A DNA stretch of 50,570 nt, the filler included, from Dirinaria sp. TL-2023a (taxonomy: Eukaryota), in the NCBI GenBank assembly GCA_051941275.1. It is 2 parts of 2 records of this genome, joined end to end, with 100 filler letters (N's around TTAATTAATTAA, not from the genome) between each part and the next. Parts side by side here need not be neighbours in the genome. Positions count along the whole stretch, not along the records: positions 1 to 25,325 come from JAVEBF010000175.1; 1 more part is not named here. One strand, given 5' to 3'. The notes under the pieces were generated by a model, which was not told the origin of the DNA, did not search any database, and was given only the letters and a program-made list of their open reading frames with translations. Position numbers and translations under genes: made by a program. The first letter of the stretch is position 1, and each line of letters begins with the position of its first letter. Shown here in pieces: positions 2,053 to 50,087 of this stretch.

Positions 2053-2789
2053 GCTCTCAAATCCTTACATACAATGTACCTACGCCGTCATGTAGTACCT
2101 GCTGTGTATATGGAGATGTGCTTCAATTATAGTATTCGCGCCATGATTCCGTCATGATGCATTGCCGGCTACCACCTGTCGCGATTGGAAGGTGGGTTCG
2201 ATCGGTACCTGTGGTGCTACTGTACACCAGCTGCCCGGTAAACTTTTGAGGTCTGCCTAGAACAGAGATAGAAGGCTCTTGTGACCTTGCATCTCCTCAT
2301 TGGCTGTGACGTGATGCATTTCGGGGTCTATCGGCAGGCTGCGAGACTCACTTTAGACCTTCCTTATTGAGCCAAACGCAGTGGACACTCGCACAGGTAT
2401 TTTACATCTCGTGCCTCTGTGATCCTTTGCGCGCATTAGATCAGCTGACACATCGTCAAATCTGCACATTCCATGAAGAACCAACGAAGCCATTCATCTG
2501 AAGTTCGACGAAAATTAATGGAGAGAGTTATTTTTGAATTGGCGACTTACCCGATGACTGAGCCGATGGCGGCGGATAGGCAGCGCGTTGAAGGGTTGAT
2601 ATAGGGTTATTTGACTTTTGTCTCCTGTGGAGTTTTGGTACGAGTATCATACCTAATTGAACTGAACTGCCCGATCTAAGACAGGCTTTCATGTACAGAC
2701 ATACAGAATGTGTAAACCGGGACCGGGTGGACCGGATACTCATCATCAAGAAAATGCCAAGTATAGTTTGACGAAAACGGTTAGTCTCC

Positions 2790-3367: not shown

Positions 3368-5036
3368 CTAGCCACTACTCCTAGTCGACAGTATCGCTTT
3401 GCTGCTGTTCTTATCACAGTCTGTACCAGGAAGCGTAATGAGCGCAAGCTGTTCCAAATGCTTTGCCACATGCCGTCGATAATCGTCAACATCCACATGC
3501 AGATGCTCCTTCTTGAAATGAGGATGAGTGGTTTCTTCGTGTGGATGGCCTGCCCATTCGTCGCAGAAGAGGCACACAGAGGCAGGTATCGCTTGCGGGA
3601 GTTGACGAGCCCCGAGTAACAACTCTACTATCTCTAGTCTCGTCACCTTGTCGCCATGAAGTTCCTCCATATGAACCTTGAACTGGTCATAATTAGAGTA
3701 AAGCCCATTCTCATTGTTGCAAATAGGACACAACCACGTCGCGTGGTGCGCCCCCAGTTCATGTTGGAGCCAGGTATCGCGGCGGCCAAACATATCCAGG
3801 CTTTCGCATTGCTCAACAGTGCACACATAAGACGCTAGGTCGGCAAAAACGTGCTCTCTAAAATAATTGTTAAAGATCTACGTCAAGCACTAGGGGCCAA
3901 CTCACTTCCATGCCAGTCTACTGCGAAATTGTTGCAATCCGTAGCAATATGGACACCTGAACGGCTGACCTGTCTCTGCTTCCTTTGGCATGTCAGGCAC
4001 CCGTAGTGGTCCAGTGTTCGCATCCTCGTGCACTGAAGACGCCAAAGACGTATTATCCGGATCGTCGTCAAGAGGTTCTTTCAGCTCACTTGGAACATCG
4101 AGCTTCGAAGCCCTCAAACTTTTCAGAATTGAAGCTACCGTTGGGGTGATCTTTGCGTCATTTGCTAGCCCACCTACGGTATCTCGACTATCAGTGATGG
4201 GCATAGTCTCAGTTGCTTCCTGATTTGATTTCATCGCGTTTTGTTGATTTCCCTGTGCTTTTGCTTCGGCATTGTGCTCGTTCTCGTGCTCCTCTCTGCA
4301 TTTTGAAAGATAGTGCCTACGCCTCGCGATTGCTTGTGCTAGACGCTTCTGGAGCCATTCACTCTGCTGTATCTTCGGATACAGGGTTCCAATAAGCGAG
4401 ACATCGCTGGCACAGTCGCCAAAGCTTTCACATCGATCCGTATAAATCGATGGTGTCATATGGGTTGCCACTGGTATTAGTTCCAATAGACCACAAAGCC
4501 TATCTAAGCTATCCCTGGCGGACTCGAAGCTTACGCCAGCCTCGGATTGCCACCCCGGACTTTCTGCCAGATTTGCGAACTTTTGTACCTTCTTCCATGC
4601 CCGCCTTTTCTCTTCCGAGAATGATTTCAGAAACTTGCGGAAGAATGAGCTCCTCTCGTCGCCATCTCCCGACGCGATAGCGTGAACTACATTCGTCAGC
4701 CATCAGAAGGTGAAATTTCGACGCAGAGCATCCACCTTGACCTAAATGCCGATTCATCATCTGCAATCTCTTCCAGATTTGGCTTGCTAAATCTGGCAGG
4801 AAAGGCGCTTTCTGTAGACGGTACTCGAGCGACGTAGGATACTGCTTATCCACAAACACTTTGCAGTTTTTCCCCCAAATTTCGAATTGGCTTTGTAGCT
4901 GGTCAAGTGCCGAACTCTGAACGTTGAAGCGAGTCTGGATTCCATGGTCTTGGAACAAGTCCCTGAGCTGTTGCAACAGGTGCCAGGAGACTTGTGCTTC
5001 AGGCCGAATACGCTCGACCGAACGTGTTGCCATCAT
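3368..5036 (-). CDS. Fungal helical-N-terminal / multi-C2H2 zinc-finger protein, paralog A (3 exons)
   Basis: N-terminal FEIWGKN...SLEYRLQKAP motif and WLQKRLAQAIARRRHYL motif. Zinc motifs CPYC..WK|HVFADL, CTVEQC..H..H, CPIC..H..H and CLFC..HVAKHLEQLAL. Two GT-AG introns restore one reading frame. Confidence 0.8.
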
Positions 5037-6116
5037 AGAAGGTGGGCTCAGAGATGAAGCAGTATTTCCTTGCGAACAAGTAAGGCAAGCTTTAGTGCTG
5101 ACGGAATGCACTGCAACCAGTCGGCTGGGTCGCGGGTCCCTGGAATGCGTCCCTGGGAGTCGATCACTGATTCTAGCTCATCGAAATGAAGAAAGCGGAC
5201 GCTGTGTGACAGCTACGTAGAGCGAGTGAAGCATCGTTACCCGCGAAGCTACCGAAGTAAGCTTCGCACACACACATGGAACAAGGAACCCGTCCAACCT
5301 CTACAACTGAAGAAGGATACTTGCGGTGTGGATGCTTCCCTAATCCAGATCATGGGATAAATCTAGGAGAAGAGTCACTCCCAGGTGTAGTGAGCTAATC
5401 AGAATAAATCTAGCACTTCCTTGGTCTTCGATGTCGCTAGAAGTCCAGGACGAGAAGTAGCTTAGGGTCCAATGCATGACTGCAATTATCTCTACCCACA
5501 GCTTTTTAGAGGACTATCGGTCCTGTCGTTTTACTAAAGTAGTGTTGATCGGCTGCGAGGCTTCGTTTTTAGATAAACTCTACGAATATCACCGTTCGAC
5601 GTACAGTAGTAATGAAATCCAGCGTACGCAGGGAGTTGATGGAGATGGGCATCATCCTTATGGGTGATAATTGGCAAGTTCTACCACCGAACAACATATA
5701 TATTAGGTTAGGAAGCTTTGCATTTAAAAGGTTAGAAATATTAGCCAACGAATATTTAATCAGCGAGGCTCTTCGTGATATGAACCCTGCTAATGTTTTT
5801 AATTGAAAGACTCCTTCGAAACCTACCTGCATCATCTCGTAGCCATAGAATAGTGAAAGACTCAGCCAGTATAGCGTCATATCCCTCGACAGGTTGGCCC
5901 TCCATCGATTTCACTCATAGACGCGGTTTTGCTCCATTCATAAGGCGGTCATGCCCCATCGCATACCACGCTAAAGTTTTTGAACGCTGTAATCACCCAC
6001 CGCTTGATCTTGCCTTTCCAGCAAGGTTAAATTCCTTCAAATCTAGTAGTGTATCGTTCAGCTGTTGCAATAGACTTGCCAAAGCTGTATCGAGGTACGG
6101 CATACTGACTACTATT

Positions 6117-9100
6117 TCATGATCCTTCGGCTGGTGCTTTTGCCGTTCCCGCCTCAGAGGTGCGTGGTGTCGAACTACCAGACGTGTGTGCAGCATCGAG
6201 CAAACGACGTCGTTCGAGCAAACGCTCCGGCGCGCGTAGAGCATGTTTGGTTCTGTCATAGAACTCGCTCTGGACTTGCTCGTCTTGAAGAAGAAACTTA
6301 AAAGCTCCCGCAAGTGGCCAGCCAGTTTCCCATTCGAATTGGTCTGCAATACGGTGCCATTTCTCAACGCAGGTCTCTGCAGTCCAGTGTTCCTGATCCT
6401 CCAATGCTATTAAGATTAATCTTTCTGTGTAACCGCATACTATTCCAAGGACTTTGTGTAGTGTTTGAGATATTTCGTCGTCCTTTAGCGATTCACTAGG
6501 CTCGAATTTATCTGGCGACAAAGGCGTATCATTAATGTCTTGGTACCAACCGTCAATGGCGTCGCTATATTTTTGTACCTGATCGAAGAGGTCGCTTTGT
6601 TGCGCAAGAATTTCCTGAGCGTCAGCAGGTATTTTCGCTTTAAACCGTGAGAGAGCTTCCAACACAGGTTTGACCATAGAACTCATTGTCTCCATGAATT
6701 CAAGCGCTTCCGCCTTTTCATCAGCTTGGGTCCGAACGCGGCCTGCTTCCTCACCTTTGGTGTTGGTCGTCATCGAAGTGCTTTCATGCATAGAAGGTGC
6801 CATAGAAGACGAGTCAACAGTGGTATCGGGGACGTTTAATGATGACGAGTTACTCATTTTTTCGGAGCTCTGTATTTCCGCCCATTGCCAAACTTTCTCG
6901 TTCACTGACGCAGATGTATTAAACTCTTCAAATATGGAAAGCGCATTTACGTCGAGCTGGGAGCCAGCTTCCAGGCGCTGCTGCTCTCCGCCACTCGTTA
7001 TCGAGCTAGTTCTCGACGCGTGTGGAGAATCTTTTTCGTGAATCGAAATTCCTCCCATTGTATCAGGCTTTGAATCTCTAGCGTCGCCACTATGCTTCAA
7101 AGCGTTGGTTTCTCTCCGAATATCTATAATGGACATTACGGTTCCCAATATGTCAGGATAGATCACCGCTAAATCTTTTATCGTATTGTGGAGCTTATCG
7201 TAATGCCTTTCAGCTCGTGTAGGTAGATCTGACGCAGAGTTACAAGTTCTGTCTGTGTTACCACTGTCGATCGTCAGAAGGACTGCCAGTTATGATGTGA
7301 TGACACGAAGATTCAACATGAACACACCGTTTTTCGTCGATACACGCAGTTATTATCGATACGAATCCTGAAAACTCCAGGAAAACATCCATAATATTTT
7401 GTTCTGAATGCTGCTCAGGGGTTTTGAATATATCATCCAGCTTAGACCAGAACGCATACTGCTCTTTGGTGTAGTCGCGATAGTCAGGTCTAAAATCGCG
7501 GTCGTGGATCCCAAAGCTTTGCGCAAGCAGCTGGAAATAATCACATAGTACGGTTGTGGTCATTTTTAATAAACCCAGTGCCTGCCAGCCGGTATCAATG
7601 GCCTGGTTGCGATTCTTGGAGTCTACTTCTATTATTGAGGCACACTTTCGAATATCTTTACCGATTCCTCGGAGTGTCTCGTCAGTTATCTGGAGGTGTT
7701 CAAATTGGGGCGCCGGCACCTTGAACTCCTTTGCAAAAGTACAAGTGTGATCGATGGTCTCAGCTGCTTCCTCAAGCTGTCTCTTGAAGCTAGCATGATG
7801 TTCCGCCCTCTGTTCGTTCCCCTTCCCTTCCAGAAGGATTTGTCTCATAGTATCATTCTGAACCACACGAGATGCATCTACAGCAGTTTCAAAATAATGA
7901 CACCGCATGTATACATCGGCTCCGTAGTCGAGGAGTAATTTGGCCACAGCTGGCTGCCCGCCAGCGACTGCAGCACCAAGAGCACTACCCCATGTTCGCC
8001 CGCTAGCATTCACATTCTCCCCAGCTTTCAACCGACGAAGAACTTCGACGCCTTTGCCCTCGTAAGCATCGACATGAAGAGCGGGGTCTGGCTGGGCACT
8101 AGTCGATGCATCGGGGAAGTCATCCTCAACCTTGAGGCTACTTTCGGCACCTGGATTTGCGCCTGTCGAATCCACGTCCTCATCTGCATCCATGCGACCT
8201 CTAGGAAGCGCAAAGAGAGCCAGCTGTTCCATGTGTAGGGCGACGTGCTCGCGATACTGGTTCGGTGTCACAAGAACCTTTTCTCCTTCATTCTCGGGGT
8301 TAAGTCTCACTAAAGTATTCTCCCATTCGTCACAGAAGGCACAGGACGACGGCGCAATTGCCTCAACTGGCCGGCGAGCTATATCTAATACGTACGGCAA
8401 CTGGACCTCTGTAAGACTCGTTTCATGGCGTGTACGCATGTGAGATTCTAGATGCTCACGCAAGGTGAAAGGTCTATGCGAACAATAGCGACAACACCAC
8501 TCGACCCAGTGGCTTTCGAATTCGTGTTTCTGCCACGAGTTGCGATCTATGAACAGCTTCAGCCCGCAATCTGGAGCAGTGCACAGGTAGGGTCGTAGAT
8601 CGTTAAAAACATGTTTCCTATCACTCACTTGATTAGACTGATCACGGCTGATGGCCCAGATAGCTTACTTCCAAACACGCCTGCGCCTGCACTGCTGGGC
8701 AGTATGACAGTAAGGGCACAAGAATGGGCCAGTGGCCGCTTCTTCTGGTATGGGAGGAACATGAAGGTCGGCGTTACTGGACTCGACAACAGTTGTTGCA
8801 TATGAACCTAGTGATTGTTCGTCCAATTCCGGTTCGCCACCTTGTTCGAGGTCCTCGAATTTGGACATGACGAAGGTCGTCGCCTTGGAAGTTTCGGTCT
8901 CGATCTGAGAGGGGCGAGAAGTTTGAGCTTCTGCAATTTGAGCCAACAAAGGCGGCCGTGACGGGGTCGGCTTTGAGCGCTCCAGATCGGTGACAGGCTT
9001 CGGTACTATCTTCATTGACATTGTCCGAATAGACTCGTCATCTTCATGATGCGTCCGGCAGTATCTCAGAAAATGACGACGCTTCGCTGCAGCTGCACCA

Positions 9101-9781
9101 AGACGCTCCACTAGCCATGGGCTTTGCTTTAGTTTTGGAAACTTGTGTTCCACATGAAGGATGTCAGGCTGTTCGTTAAATGGATCTCCTCTAGTTGACA
9201 AGGCCTTGCTGTAACGGTCTCGATTGGTAGATTTCTGAATGAGAAGAGACAAGCCATATAGGTTGGTGACGAATTCAATGCAATATTTGAACAGCTTGCT
9301 CGACTCTGAGAAAGGTTCAAGATCATCCGGATCGACGAGTCCTAAAGCTACAAGTTCATCTATCTCTTGAGGTGACAGCTGCACCTCATCCCTTGGGGAG
9401 ATGATGCGGTTCTCCCGCTGACCTGACACAATTGAGGTCACTGAACGACGTTAGGAAGTGTCCGACTGCTCCGCCATATGAAATTCGCTCACAGTCATTT
9501 AGTGTCTCATTCAGGTCCTTCAGATTTTCAGCTACGAGTTGCGCTACTTTTGGTGCGTCCTTGAGTCTGGCACCTAAGGAACTACGCTTGTTATGAGGTT
9601 GTAACGCTTTGATATTAGTAGCCCAGATATTGAAGCGCGCAAATTCGTCAAGGATAGCGTCGCGTGAGAGGCCGTGATAAGGCTCTTGTAGAGTATCTTT
9701 CAGCAGATCCTCTAGCTTTGCAAACGTTCTGATTGAGGTCTGGGCTTCATTGGCGATTTGCGAGTGAGGCTCGGTAGTCAT
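6117..9781 (-). CDS. Helical-N-terminal / multi-C2H2 / ankyrin-repeat protein, paralog B (4 exons)
   Basis: DEFARFNIWATNI...SSLGARLKDAP, WLVERLGAAAAKRRHFL, CPYC..WK|KHVFNDLRPYLC and HVALHMEQLALFALP. Ankyrin-like GSALGAAVAGGQPAVAKLLLDYGAD. An intron at about 7264-7328 joins ORF 7258..8628 in frame to ORF 6117..7166. Confidence 0.8.
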
Positions 9782-10519
9782 TGTAATCAAGCCTTTTTTT
9801 GAACCTTTTTCTCAGAGCGTCGATGGTGCATGCGACTGCATAGAAATATGATCGCCTTCTTCATTCAATAACCAAGCTGTAAAGATGACAACACTGTTAC
9901 GAAGTGCAGGGAGGAGCGTGGGGTTTTTCGTCAAATGCACCGACCCGCCCAAGAACATTCGTGAAATCGACAAGTCTAGCCCGAAAATTCTCGAGCGACC
10001 TCTAGCGCATGGGCACAACAGTGTACTTGATGGGAAATGTTCCTAGGCGTGCATTTTGCGTCAATGATATACAGGCAAAGAAGTATTCACCGTGACCTGG
10101 ATAGCGTAAGATAATGGCTTTCTGGGACTGCTCTCACATGATTCTCGACATCGGTACAGAGCCAGAGAGCGAGAGCGAGAGCTCGAGCTCGATCTGCCGT
10201 AAGTTGCTAGGAATTAATACCAGTGACGGCACCGAAATAGCCGCTTGCATGGATTGTGCTCCACGGGTCAGCACAGATTGGTGGAAATTGTGCTTCGGAT
10301 GCAGGCCGCAATGGACTTTTGCAAAGCCACATTCGTGCATGAGAAGATCAACCAATCGTCGATTAAGACAGGAATAGCACGCGACGGGCAGGGCCTGAGG
10401 GCATTGGCTTTGCTTTGCATTTGGAGCCTCTTAAGTTATGCTCCATAACCTGGCCTTTGATTTGCATTCGTGAAGTCGCTTTTTTTCCCTGCACAAGTGT
10501 TCGCTTGCCTCCAAATAGT

Positions 10520-12365
10520 ATGGAGATCGCGGGCATCGTGCTTGCTGTTTTCCCTCTCTTGGGTTCGACAATAGAGGGTGTTAATCTCGTGAAATCCGTG
10601 TTTTCCCTGCAGCAGGAGTATTGGAGCTGCCGACAACGAGTTGGTGTTGAACGGGTACTGTTTGAAAACAACCTTCGATTGCTCTTACAGCCGATAATAT
10701 GTGATGAACAGCGAGTTGATGAACTGATATCGCATCCTAATGACGTATCTTGGAGAGAGACAGAACTGAACGAGAAAGTACGTATGAGGCTGGACCGGAG
10801 CTATGGGGTCTACCTGGATACTGTTAGCAGCATTGCGCGTGACTTGTACAGCTTAACAAAGTCACTCGGTACCAGCGACGAGGTCATCCAGGCTAGATTA
10901 GGACCGACGGTCAGTTCACTTCTCAGGCCAGTTCGTCTCTGAAAAAAAGTACGCTGAGCGCTCATTACCACAGCATTCCCACGCCATCGCCACTTTTAGA
11001 AGCAGCACAGATCGGGCTTCAGCTTTGGTCAAATACGAAATCTTCTGTCTAAAGTTCTTGTACAATGCTAGGAATAGGGAAAGATTACTCGACTCCTTGA
11101 CGAAGCAGAACCGCCAAATACGCACATTGCTTGAACAACAAGATGAGTTGGCGTCCTGCTCGACTACACCACACTCTTTAGCGCCGCGAAAGCCACTGGC
11201 GAAATCACCTTTAGTGCGGTGTTGGCGCCATGCGAGCAACATCTACAGCCTAATGCAAAAGCTCTGGTGCTGCGATTGCCGAGATCATCACCATGCCGAA
11301 CTCCTTCTAAGACATCATAATTCAAACACTAAGGAAGTCGACTACAGAGTATACTTCAATTTTGCAAACGGTGTGGATGATATGCCAGATGCGCCATGGA
11401 GATTTACGGCAGCGACGATCTTCCCAGGCGACAGCACTTATGGGAAAGCTTCCAGAGCCCAGCCTTTATCCCCGTTGGCGGTCATGAGTGACATCGTTCA
11501 GAAGGAGGCAGCTGAAGCATCGAAGAACAGACGAAAGCGCCCAGGAAAACGAGGCGTATCTTTTGTATTACCAGCTGCAAGTGTGATGGCTTCCTCACCA
11601 AACACCATTGAGCCTACTGAGCCCGAGATCACCGATCTGTGCGCAACCATGGCGAACGCCTTCGGAGAACGTAAATGCCTCGGGATTGCAAGTGATGATT
11701 CCAAACATTACTTCATTGAGCCTCTGGCTTATCAGGAACCCCCCAATACGAAGATGGAATTTATACCCCTTAGTGAAGCATTACGGGGAGAGCCGAAGGA
11801 GCTCAGCCAGCGGAAAAGGTTTTCCGTGGCATTGGCTATCGCCTCCTCATTTCTCCAACTGCATAACTCGCCTTGGCTTGGACCACATTGGGGCAAGGAG
11901 GACGTGTATGTAGTTTACGACAGACATACAGGGAAGTTTTACGATGAACCTCGGATTTCACGGAACTTCTCCGCCATTACCGCTCCTGGGACGAGCCAAA
12001 GCGATCCAAGTATCTCAACCCTTGGGATCATACTGATGGAGCTCTGCTATGGAGTGTCGATAGATAAGCGACCAGAAAGAGAACGCTTTCGTTTAGCTCA
12101 TATCGATAAAGACACAGTGGACTTATTCATCGCACTGGATTTGGATAAAGGGTATTCTCTGCAATATATGGATACGGGCTACGCTTCCGCAGTCAGCTAT
12201 TGTCTGAAGAATACGATCATGAAGCAGTCGGCGGGTTTTGACGATCGAGAATGGCGTGAGGTGTTTCTGAAAAGAGTAGTTGAACCGTTAGCACTCTGCA
12301 CCGAATACGCTTTGAAAGTAGAGGGCCCACGGGAAGAGCACGGCATTCCAGGCCTGTCCGTATGA
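10520..12365 (+). CDS. HeLo/HELL-like N-terminal helical domain + C-terminal degenerate kinase-like domain protein (2 exons)
   Basis: Starts MEIAGIVLAVFPLL. Intron 10910-10973 (GTCAGT...CAG) joins the ORFs in frame. C-terminal RFSVALAIASSFLQLHNSPWL, TLGIILMELCYG and YASAVSYCL resemble kinase C-lobe subdomains without HRD/DFG. Confidence 0.72.
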
Positions 12366-48036: not shown

Positions 48037-50087
48037 ATGGAGAAAATCACGGACAAGATTGCAGCGTTGCCCAACGATGCCAATTACTTCTCCCTGGAGT
48101 TCTTCCCACCGAAGACTGATATGGTAGGTGCTGTCCATTCGACCCCCGGAGTAGCTTTTGACAATGTCTGTAGGGGTTTTCCAATCTCCAAACCCGTTTA
48201 GAACGCATGTCCCTTGCTCTACGGCCCCTATTTGTGGCTGTGACTTGGGGTGCCGGGGGCAGCACCTCGTCCGGATCTCTACAGCTCGCGGAATTATGCC
48301 AACGGCAATTGGGTCTTACAACATGCCTGCATCTCACCTGTACGAATATGAAGAAGAAACTGATAGACGAAGCTTTGGAGGAAGCAAAGGCGCTGGGCGT
48401 CCGGAACATTCTGGCATTGAGAGGCGATCCCCCACGGGAAGAGGAATACAAGCTTCAAGAAGATGAGGGAACGCAGGATGAAGAAGAGAGCAACGAGAAA
48501 TTTCAATGGGCGATTGACCTGGTTCGATACATCAGGCACGTGCATAAAGATTACTTTTGCATAGGTGCAGCAGCATACCCGGAAGGCCATGCGGACGAAT
48601 CGCACCCTGTGGACCAGGACCCGCTGCACGATCTCCCATATCTCATAGACAAGACGAAAGCCGGAGCCGACTTCATCATGACGCAACTCTTCTACGACGA
48701 AGATGCCTATATGAAATTTGAAAAGCTGCTACGAGAACATGAATCAGGCACATTTGCAACTATACCGATCATCCCGGGTTTGATGCCCATCCAGAGCTAC
48801 CAGATACTGAAAAGAGTAACGAAGCTAAGCCATTGCAAGCTCCCTCCAGCATTACTGTCCAGACTTGAGCCTGTCAAGGGAGACGACGAAGCGGTCAAGC
48901 ACGAGGGAATCGATATCATCAGTGAGATTGTGGAGGATATCAAGAAAGCCAAGAGCAAAGGACCACGAGGATTCCATTTCTTCACTTTGAACCTCGAAAA
49001 GGCTGTCGGCTTCATCCTGGAGCGGTGCCACCTTATCCCGCCCAGCACACCGTCTCCAGAAGCCCAAGACTTGTCCGCAATCGACGATTCCCTTCCCCCC
49101 AACCATAACGACACCGGGCACCCAATATCGAACGGCATCCCAACCCCCGACCACCATCGCATCGACTCCACCACCTCCCAAGATCAGCTCACGACTTCAA
49201 ACTCCTCTAATCGCGTTTCGACCACCCGCTCAAGCTCCCCACCCTCCCGAGCCGCCACCCTCGCCATCTCCCACGGTCTCACTCCTGCAAGCCGCGAAGC
49301 AACCTGGGACGACTATCCCAATGGGCGGTACGGCGACCCTCGCTCCCCGGCCTTCGGCACCCCACTCACCTATTCTCCCTCCTCGCTCCCCGTGCCTCCG
49401 CACACGGCCCGCACACTTTGGGGCGAACCCGTAGCCCCGGCAGACATAACGGCGCTCTTCACCTCCCACTTAGCCGGCCAACCACCGCACCAACTCCCCT
49501 GGTCGGAATCCGGCAGCCTGAGCCCCGAAACGGCCCTCATCCGCGCGGAACTCACCGCCCTGAACGCCTACAGCTGGTGGACGATCGCGTCGCAACCGGC
49601 CGTCGACGGGCTCCCCTCCACCGACCCAACACACGGCTGGGGTCCGCCAGGCGGCTTCGTGTTCCAAAAACCCTTCGTCGAGTTCTTCCTCCCTTCCCCG
49701 GCTTTCCACACCCTCCTCCTCCCACACCTGCGCTCCTCCCGCATCGCCCCGCAGATCTCCTTCTACGCGGCCAACGCCGCGGGCGACTTCCTCTCCTCCG
49801 AGACCAACTCCGGTGCCGTGCACGCGGTCACGTGGGGCAGTTTCCCCGGCAAAGAGATCGCCACCGCGAGTATGGTCGAGGAAGTCAGTTTCCGGCCGTG
49901 GGTCGAGGAGGCGTTCGCGCGCTGGGGGGAGTGGAGTCGCTGCGTGCGGAGGGCGGAGAGTCGGGCGTTTTTGAAACGGATGGCGGCGGAGTGTTGGTTG
50001 GTTAATGTGGTCGGGCATGGGTATCGGGAGGGGGAGGGAGCCGGCTTGTGGGATTTGCTTGTGCAGGCGGGGAAGGGTGCTGGATAG
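48037..50087 (+). CDS. MET12: Methylenetetrahydrofolate reductase (Met12-like; 2 exons)
   Basis: MEKITDKI..YFSLEFFPPKT, VTWGAGGST, HLTCTNM, NILALRGDPP, AAYPEGH, ADFIMTQLFYD, HFFTLNLE, and regulatory-domain WDDYPNGRYGDPRSPAFG. MET12 rather than MET13 is judged from the N-terminus. Confidence 0.92.

Follow-up and report, generated by a model that had tools for sequence, protein, structure and literature searches.

A recurrent divergent gene pair of Pezizomycotina couples a DUF7580 pseudokinase to an acuF-like zinc-finger protein and is a candidate MLKL-like effector/regulator module

INTRODUCTION

The described systems closest to the gene pair considered here are the MLKL proteins and the two-gene effector clusters of fungi. 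MLKL, present in vertebrates and in plants (AtMLKL1-3), is built from an N-terminal helical domain, a linker helix, and an inactive kinase fold, and in wheat an MLKL executor, R3AK, is genetically paired with an NLR sensor, R3NLR (10.64898/2026.08.07.743466, in excerpt). In the fungal het-S/nwd2 and HELLP/PNT1 clusters, a helical N-terminal effector lies beside its regulator, and HeLo-type domains are described as having a conserved hydrophobic extreme N terminus; the available portion of the same 2025 review notes that plants are known to have bona fide MLKL homologues and urges a broader search for fungal HeLo/four-helix-bundle (4HB) proteins (PMC12881547). Here, we analyze a 50,570-nucleotide stretch (the window) of the metagenome-assembled genome of the lichen fungus Dirinaria sp. 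TL-2023a, in which a gene for a protein with a helical head and a predicted pseudokinase domain (gene C, protein P0001) is divergently oriented to a gene for a zinc-finger protein (gene B, protein P0008), with a paralogue of the latter (gene A) downstream of B.

The B-C pair resembles each of these systems in part. C has its parts in the same order as MLKL; as in wheat R3AK/R3NLR, an MLKL-type protein is genetically paired with a candidate sensor; as in het-S/nwd2 and HELLP/PNT1, a protein with a helical N terminus, in C a candidate effector domain, is encoded beside a putative regulator in a two-gene cluster; and the head of C shares the conserved hydrophobic extreme N terminus of the HeLo/HELL effectors (PMC12881547, in its available portion). 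The differences are as marked. Unlike MLKL, C has a head that is modeled as three long helices of about 35-55 residues and is at most a candidate four-helix bundle, an N-lobe in which a long disordered insert accompanies a probable Cys3-His zinc site, and a partner that is a zinc-finger protein and not a kinase (RIPK3) or an NLR. In agreement with the initial annotation of this DNA, Pfam scans of genes A, B, and C recovered neither a NACHT/NB-ARC nor a protease domain, and no motif of the prion-forming or amyloid kind was noticed in the B-C pair, which sets it apart from the het-S/nwd2 type; compared with the HeLo/HELL effectors, C carries a pseudokinase in place of the amyloid tail and is unmatched by the Pfam HeLo and PigL_N models.

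C and B belong to two uncharacterized fungal families, DUF7580 (PF24476) and zf-C2H2_AcuF (PF26082), respectively. The latter is reported to be, with HET and ankyrin, among the most copy-number-overdispersed families of the Neurospora crassa pangenome (PMC13412767, in excerpt). In the literature searched, which covered DUF7580/PF26082, HeLo, and fungal MLKL topics, DUF7580 is not mentioned, PF26082 appears only as that copy-number-variable family, as far as the excerpted text of PMC13412767 goes, and neither the B-C pair nor a kinase fold for DUF7580 is described. The module is most likely a two-gene effector/regulator unit of a pathway for which we found no description in that literature.

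RESULTS AND DISCUSSION

The B-C pair is a recurrent divergent unit

A peptide pattern derived from the alignment of C relatives retrieved 209 stretches of metagenome contigs, 137 of which encode relatives of C; we took the 80 best, together with as much as 10 kb of sequence to either side, and scored them by tblastn with six B-family and nine C-family proteins. The loci were therefore chosen through C, and all come from metagenome contigs. We treated a locus as evaluable if the N terminus of C was present together with at least 1500 bp upstream of it, which left 47 of the 80, the other 33 being partial or cut by contig ends. Merging loci at ≥95% nucleotide identity gave 29 distinct groups, some of which are still related (L014/L024, 94%). 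Every one of the 47 evaluable loci, and hence every group (29 of 29), has a B-like gene, encoded on the other strand, as the immediate upstream neighbor of the C-like gene, with gaps between alignment ends of 266-1021 bp; even locus L022, which retains only 805 bp upstream, shows the N terminus of B. The contexts of these pairs are otherwise unrelated: no open reading frame (ORF) family of the flanks occurs in more than 2 of the 29 groups, and the B-C pair is thus the only conserved linkage. Recurrence of the two families as adjacent divergent pairs had been set beforehand as the test of the proposal that they form a module, and this part of the initial annotation is borne out.

In the 967,593 bp covered, the only B-like sequence outside the divergent arrangement is a decayed remnant (L039, of the same group as L019). 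Here (L039:5413-11363 and L019:1739-2938), a fragment of the first exon of B (residues 9-95) is joined directly to a C gene lacking the residues before about 212, and in L039 a fragment of the C head (residues 8-83) lies 4.3 kb upstream, so that the two genes appear to have been disrupted jointly.

Because the same pairing is found in every related locus that could be checked, B and C almost certainly work together in one pathway, as judged from genome context. The regulatory partner proposed for C was identified through this context alone, as the pair stays together while its neighbors differ, and it links two Pfam families without a described function, DUF7580 and zf-C2H2_AcuF, as predicted functional partners. 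The broader proposal, that B and C constitute an obligately linked two-gene module that is widespread in Pezizomycotina, is co-expressed, and operates by the MLKL-like effector/regulator mechanism set out below, is one that we hold tentatively when all of its parts are taken jointly.

The pairwise distances of B and C among the 29 groups are correlated (Pearson 0.85, Spearman 0.59; 341 of 406 pairs usable), a correlation reached by none of 2000 label permutations, and B and C have the same nearest neighbor in 18 of the 29 groups; the median protein distance across groups is about 64-68%. This shows that the partners have not been swapped; since linked genes share their history, co-adaptation does not follow from it. 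The two families are not related to each other, as a profile-profile comparison returned a probability of 0.2. No Rosetta-stone fusion was encountered, with none of the proteins searched matching both hidden Markov models (HMMs), and a complex prediction for B residues 1-240 and 322-495 with C residues 1-585, run without the family alignments made here, scored 0.00, which speaks neither for nor against binding.

The strict head-to-head linkage with a spacer of 0.3-1 kb suggests that the two genes are co-expressed from one promoter and that both products are needed together. No motif common to all pairs was found in the promoters shared by B and C at the 29 representative loci (e.g., L014, L024, L057, and L079). 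Relative to the remainder of these loci, the promoters are enriched in two words, namely, CCCCGCAC, with 8 occurrences in 11,342 bp of shared promoter against 17 in the remaining 382,294 bp, and AGGCTGA, with 13 against 56 in the same two sets. Both were picked post hoc and are present in a minority of the promoters, some of them from related loci, and neither occurs in the shared promoter of the window; they may represent a cis-element of one subfamily.

Gene C encodes a predicted pseudokinase of a large and divergent family

The sole Pfam match of C is to DUF7580 (residues 345-570; 60.5 bits against a cut-off of 27), and this domain was matched in 54 of 55 aligned relatives and in 81 of 95 further relatives. 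An exhaustive phmmer search recovered 1806 representatives at an E value of ≤1e-3, 579 at ≤1e-10, and 94 at ≤1e-30. Many of these proteins are about 600 amino acids (aa) long and align from residue 1 to about residue 575, indicating that the combination of head and DUF7580 is the architecture of a large conserved family, although one that is deeply divergent (about 25-30% identity). Its named members are from Dothideomycetes, Sordariomycetes, and the Dirinaria lichen fungus, and the ten representatives that we looked up include proteins from Tothia, Monosporascus, Apiospora, Cladorrhinum, Elasticomyces, Lophium, Plectosphaerella, Glonium, and Lineolata.

An AlphaFold2 model of C computed from the 55-sequence alignment has a mean predicted local distance difference test (pLDDT) score of 81.7 and comprises three head helices (residues 2-56, 81-116, and 141-193), a linker helix (209-227), and an alpha/beta domain (237-579). 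Every match listed in a Foldseek search with this model is a kinase or pseudokinase (Pan3, SYMRK, CTR1, RIPK1, and IRAK4), with Pan3 at the top; the best E value is 1.7e-3, and none of the matches listed reaches ≤1e-3. The marks of an active protein kinase (the beta-3 Lys, the HRD Asp, the DFG Asp, and the Gly-rich loop) are lacking in gene C. Residues at catalytic positions are not conserved (K438 in 40 and D440 in 35 of the 55 sequences), and across the same alignment no Lys, Asp, or Asn attains 75% in the positions equivalent to the catalytic loop and DFG motif. Likewise, the family has no Asp at positions 456-462, the DFG equivalent, no conserved beta-3 Lys (strands 254-259), and no Gly-rich loop. 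Because the model has a kinase fold and no catalytic residue is conserved, DUF7580 is a pseudokinase domain, in keeping with the label that the initial annotation had given to this gene. The family thereby receives a fold.

The residues that are nearly fixed are others: C230 (55/55), C232 (53/55), H236 (53/54), and C353 (55/55). Judging from these columns, they probably form a zinc site that ties the first strand to the helix in the alpha-C position. The putative Cys3-His site falls where an active kinase would bind ATP. The N-lobe further contains a disordered insert (residues 290-342) that is rich in Ser, Thr, Pro, and Lys and is a candidate regulatory or phosphorylation loop. The insert is variable in length, and in relatives it shows recurring Pro-x-His-Arg and Lys-Lys-Val-Ser/Thr-Phe words.

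The most conserved stretch of the head is formed by its hydrophobic first 12 residues (E2 in 51/52, G5 in 51/52, L8 in 50/51, and P12 in 50/51 sequences), and the extreme N terminus is Gly/Ala-rich. The nearest named clusters to the head in the ESM Atlas are HeLo clusters, which account for 8 of the 30 nearest (best 0.94, with 185 shared features). These observations provide a lead toward a HeLo domain related by remote homology, for which the head is a candidate.

The zinc-finger partner B combines a conserved core with variable tails

B carries the precomputed Pfam label PF26082, and the UniRef name of its relatives is [quoted passage not shown] In a 34-sequence alignment, the N-terminal region and four Cys2-His2 sets are conserved, with ligand columns that are invariant or at ≥90%; the ligands in B are C338, C341, and H356; C366, C371, H385, and H390; C396, H413, and H418; and C446, C449, H478, and H482. 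Confidence in the structural model of B (mean pLDDT, 64.1) is high only for residues 1-240 and about 320-495, i.e., the helical N-terminal domain and the finger module. Foldseek searches matched the finger module only to C2H2 arrays (TFIIIA, CTCF, Klf4, and WT1) at nonsignificant E values of 0.5-3, and the VIA lists for the model are filled by helical bundles. While the C2H2 label that had been attached to these genes is upheld by the four conserved sets, the accompanying ankyrin label stands only in weakened form: Ank_2 scores 23.9 bits on exon 3 of B against a cut-off of 27.3 and 15.4 bits on the whole protein, the region has a pLDDT of about 50, and the stretch is absent from A.

The tail of B is modeled as a four-helix bundle (residues 580-721) followed by further helices (795-835 and 958-1138), and among the identified relatives only P0009 has it in common. 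A weak match to the Pfam model PigL_N (formerly Helo_like_N; E value, 0.038) covers residues 662-742 (window 7453-7695), inside the four-helix bundle; if this match were real, the zinc-finger partner would itself bear a HeLo-like module. In other relatives of B, the tails contain RhoGAP, TPR_10/TPR_12, MIT, ULD_2, XPC-binding, or Zn_clus domains, a variability that would fit a sensor or adaptor role for the family. Five proteins (P0188, P0189, P0190, P0192, and P0193) begin at the acuF-like finger module (position 322 or 338 of the B HMM onward) and continue into TPR_10/TPR_12 or ULD_2. As they do so without the N-terminal domain of B, the finger module appears to be a mobile unit in its own right.

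A candidate mechanism and its alternatives

Modeled on MLKL of vertebrates and plants and on the NLR/MLKL pair of wheat, the following mechanism can be conceived for the pair. Both proteins would be made from one bidirectional promoter. B would serve as the input or regulator, with its conserved helical domain and rigid four-finger core joined to interaction tails that are swapped between lineages, an ankyrin-like stretch and helical bundles in Dirinaria and TPR, MIT, RhoGAP, ULD, or XPC-binding domains elsewhere. C would be the output, with the layout of MLKL, namely, a head whose hydrophobic tip is conserved, a linker helix, and a dead kinase with its probable Cys3-His zinc site. B would hold or release C via the pseudokinase domain, and after release the head would oligomerize and attack a membrane, leading to regulated cell death or defense of a necroptosis-like kind. 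The contact between B and C, the assignment of sensor and actor, the targeting of membranes, and cell death as the outcome are all inferred here from analogy. We consider a two-gene module of a sensor/regulator and an MLKL-like effector the most likely reading of the pair, and we advance it tentatively. Doubtful, if possible, is the most far-reaching version, that Pezizomycotina carry a widespread, multi-copy necroptosis-like system in which an MLKL analogue with a membrane-attacking head on a zinc-stabilized dead kinase is controlled, in place of a kinase or an NLR, by a dedicated zinc-finger partner whose swappable tail (ankyrin, TPR, MIT, RhoGAP, or ubiquitin-like) sets what is sensed; if true, fungal regulated cell death would have a third architecture in addition to the NLR-amyloid-HeLo and protease-gasdermin types.

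Several results weigh against this proposal. Among the 55 aligned relatives of C, the Pfam models HeLo (PF14479), PigL_N/Helo_like_N (PF17111), and SesA (PF17107) had no match at an E value of ≤0.01, and the same three had none at ≤1e-3 among the 95 further relatives; with the threshold relaxed to ≤10, HeLo matched only 2 of the 55, with a best E value of 0.11. A search of PDB sequences with the 55-sequence C profile at E values of ≤10 returned nothing below 0.26 and no MLKL, so that a sequence-level match to MLKL is lacking, and its only kinase, HRI, appeared at an E value of 0.61 over 39 residues, i.e., no kinase was found below 0.1. In four comparisons of close haplotypes or sister taxa, the pair is 0.94-0.98 identical and its flanks are 0.93-0.98 identical, with no consistent dip at the pair: B, C, and the rest of the locus stand at 0.976, 0.977, and 0.979 in L057/L070 and at 0.938, 0.972, and 0.954 in L017/L025, and in L004/L001 and L024/L014 the pair similarly diverges like its flanks. 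Such figures speak against a hyperpolymorphic het locus of the classical type in those metagenome lineages, in which het-like allelic polymorphism was not seen. Further, context evidence gathered via C cannot say what share of B-family genes has a C partner, and A has none. Accordingly, the initial annotation, which had read the locus as a two-component system of a sensor and a HeLo-pseudokinase executioner, is retained by us only in part: the recurrent pairing, the MLKL-like layout, and the variable tails of the partner favor it, whereas the HeLo identity of the head is a lead that the Pfam models do not support, A stands outside the unit, and het-like polymorphism was not observed in the four comparisons.

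Among the alternatives, a non-lethal signaling or scaffold heteromer, in which C would be a pseudokinase scaffold in the manner of Pan3 or ILK and its head a coiled-coil assembly domain with no attack on membranes, is somewhat unlikely but has evidence in its favor. Searched by structure, C residues 1-200 retrieve only long-helix bundles of a generic kind and coiled coils of scaffolds (such as the TBK1 scaffold, Atg17, and Mis12), the pseudokinase of Pan3 is the top Foldseek match of the whole protein, and between close haplotypes the pair evolves at the rate of its flanks, like an ordinary gene. A scaffold does not sit as well with a head whose most conserved part is its hydrophobic, Gly/Ala-rich extreme N terminus, as in HeLo-type domains (PMC12881547, in its available portion), and whose nearest named clusters are HeLo, nor with a family that is large, deeply divergent, and found in unrelated contexts; the copy number of PF26082 is, moreover, overdispersed like that of HET, according to the excerpted text of PMC13412767. 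That B is instead a C2H2 transcription factor acting on the shared promoter to control C and itself, with linkage serving cis-regulation and not protein contact, is unlikely. It has four C2H2-type fingers, the weak Foldseek matches of which are DNA-binding arrays, and the enriched promoter words could fit this role equally well, which is a further point against the module that we favor. Yet those words were chosen after the fact, occur in a minority of promoters, and are missing from that of the window; the fingers are modeled as a rigid, compact module with short linkers (pLDDT, about 93), for which the array matches are not significant; the residues of the finger helices are conserved across the family, from which one universal site would be expected and none was found; and TPR, MIT, RhoGAP, and ULD tails resemble adaptor rather than activation domains.

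The remaining two explanations concern the linkage itself. A selfish toxin-antidote (killer) cassette, in which C poisons and B protects or the other way round, would account for the many unrelated contexts, for the want of any other conserved neighbor, and for B and C never being separated. We nevertheless regard it as improbable, given that the window locus is surrounded by no direct or inverted repeats longer than 24 nucleotides (nt), only matches of 18-24 nt, and displays no composition anomaly, that the pair stays within the same flanks among related haplotypes and diverges there no more than ordinarily, and that no transposase-like gene recurs in the flanks. Adjacency without functional coupling, through inherited synteny or chance, is highly improbable, as all 29 groups preserve the divergent order at the median protein distance given above while their other neighbors differ. 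The pair is a concrete and testable candidate, drawn from a large fungal family with the domain order of MLKL. If its predicted death function is true, helical executioners would prove to be controlled in more ways than the known ones of phosphorylation, amyloid templating, and NLR oligomerization; if it is false, the pair would still be a two-gene unit that is strictly conserved in a major fungal lineage and calls for an explanation.

Gene models, gene A, and the surroundings of the locus

Gene models were built from stop-to-stop ORFs and inspection of splice sites (Table 1), and all three genes are borne out as real. The spliced model of C is 100% identical to the deposited P0001 over 593 aa, and the four-exon model of B equals the deposited P0008. 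They confirm the layout first described for the locus: the start codons of B and C are divergent and 739 bp apart, A begins about 1.08 kb past the stop codon of B, and the flanking genes are ordinary, with Peptidase_S28 on the left and Gta3/GatF on the right.

Table 1. Features of the B-C locus and gene A, in window coordinates
Feature	Position	Strand	Details and basis
Gene C (Q9191_001945, P0001)	10520-12365	+	593 aa; ATG at 10520, stop at 12365; exon 1, 10520-10909; intron, 10910-10973 (64 nt); exon 2, 10974-12365 including stop
C residues 1-195, all-helical head	10520-11168 (spans intron)	+	AlphaFold2 model, column counts
C residues 209-579, DUF7580, predicted two-lobed protein-kinase fold	11208-12320	+	Pfam; Foldseek and VIA matches are kinases; residue counts
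Candidate Cys3-His site of C	C230-H236, 11661-11678; C353, 12036-12038	+	Fixed columns, 55 members
C residues 290-342, disordered Ser/Thr/Pro/Lys-rich insert	11841-12005	+	N-lobe
Shared divergent intergenic region, presumed bidirectional promoter	9782-10519	.	738 bp; gene-model coordinates
Gene B (Q9191_001944, P0008)	9781-6117	-	1160 aa; exon blocks 9781-9494, 9438-8668, 8616-7327, 7247-6117 (boundaries within about 3 nt)
B residues 1-240, conserved helical N-terminal domain	9010-9781 (spans intron 1)	-	pLDDT about 90
B residues 330-495, compact module of four C2H2-type fingers (acuF-like, PF26082)	8194-8742 (spans intron 2)	-	Alignment columns; pLDDT about 93
B residues 533-592, weak ankyrin-like stretch	7903-8082	-	Ank_2 below cut-off
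B residues 576-1138, lineage-specific helical tail	6186-7953 (spans intron 3)	-	Model
Gene A	5036-3368	-	521 aa by model; exons 5036-4742, 4686-3906, 3857-3368

Gene A is a paralogue of B (about 30% identity; E value of 5.6e-94 against the B-family HMM); of the 69 B-family sequences compared, B is the one closest to it. It is intact and consists of the core only, the N-terminal domain and the zinc fingers, with neither the tail nor the ankyrin-like stretch. A search with the C-family HMM over all window ORFs of ≥20 aa found only C itself and no C-like gene beside A, and no second B-like gene was found within the flanks examined at the 47 evaluable loci. For these two reasons, gene A is, by its sequence, a diverged extra copy of the B core that lies outside the conserved unit; of the tandem partner genes at first assigned to the module, B is upheld by its pairing with C, and A is set aside. 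A tblastn match of C residues 22-70 to window 2449-2601 (+ strand; 37% identity; E value, 0.004) was considered as a remnant of a C gene and rejected, as the family HMM did not support it; this marginal match sits in the 1.3 kb of gene-poor sequence that separates the S28 peptidase gene from the end of A. Toward the far end of the window, at 49001-50000, the G+C content rises up to 0.656, with a GC skew of -0.25, against 0.45-0.55 as usual in the window.

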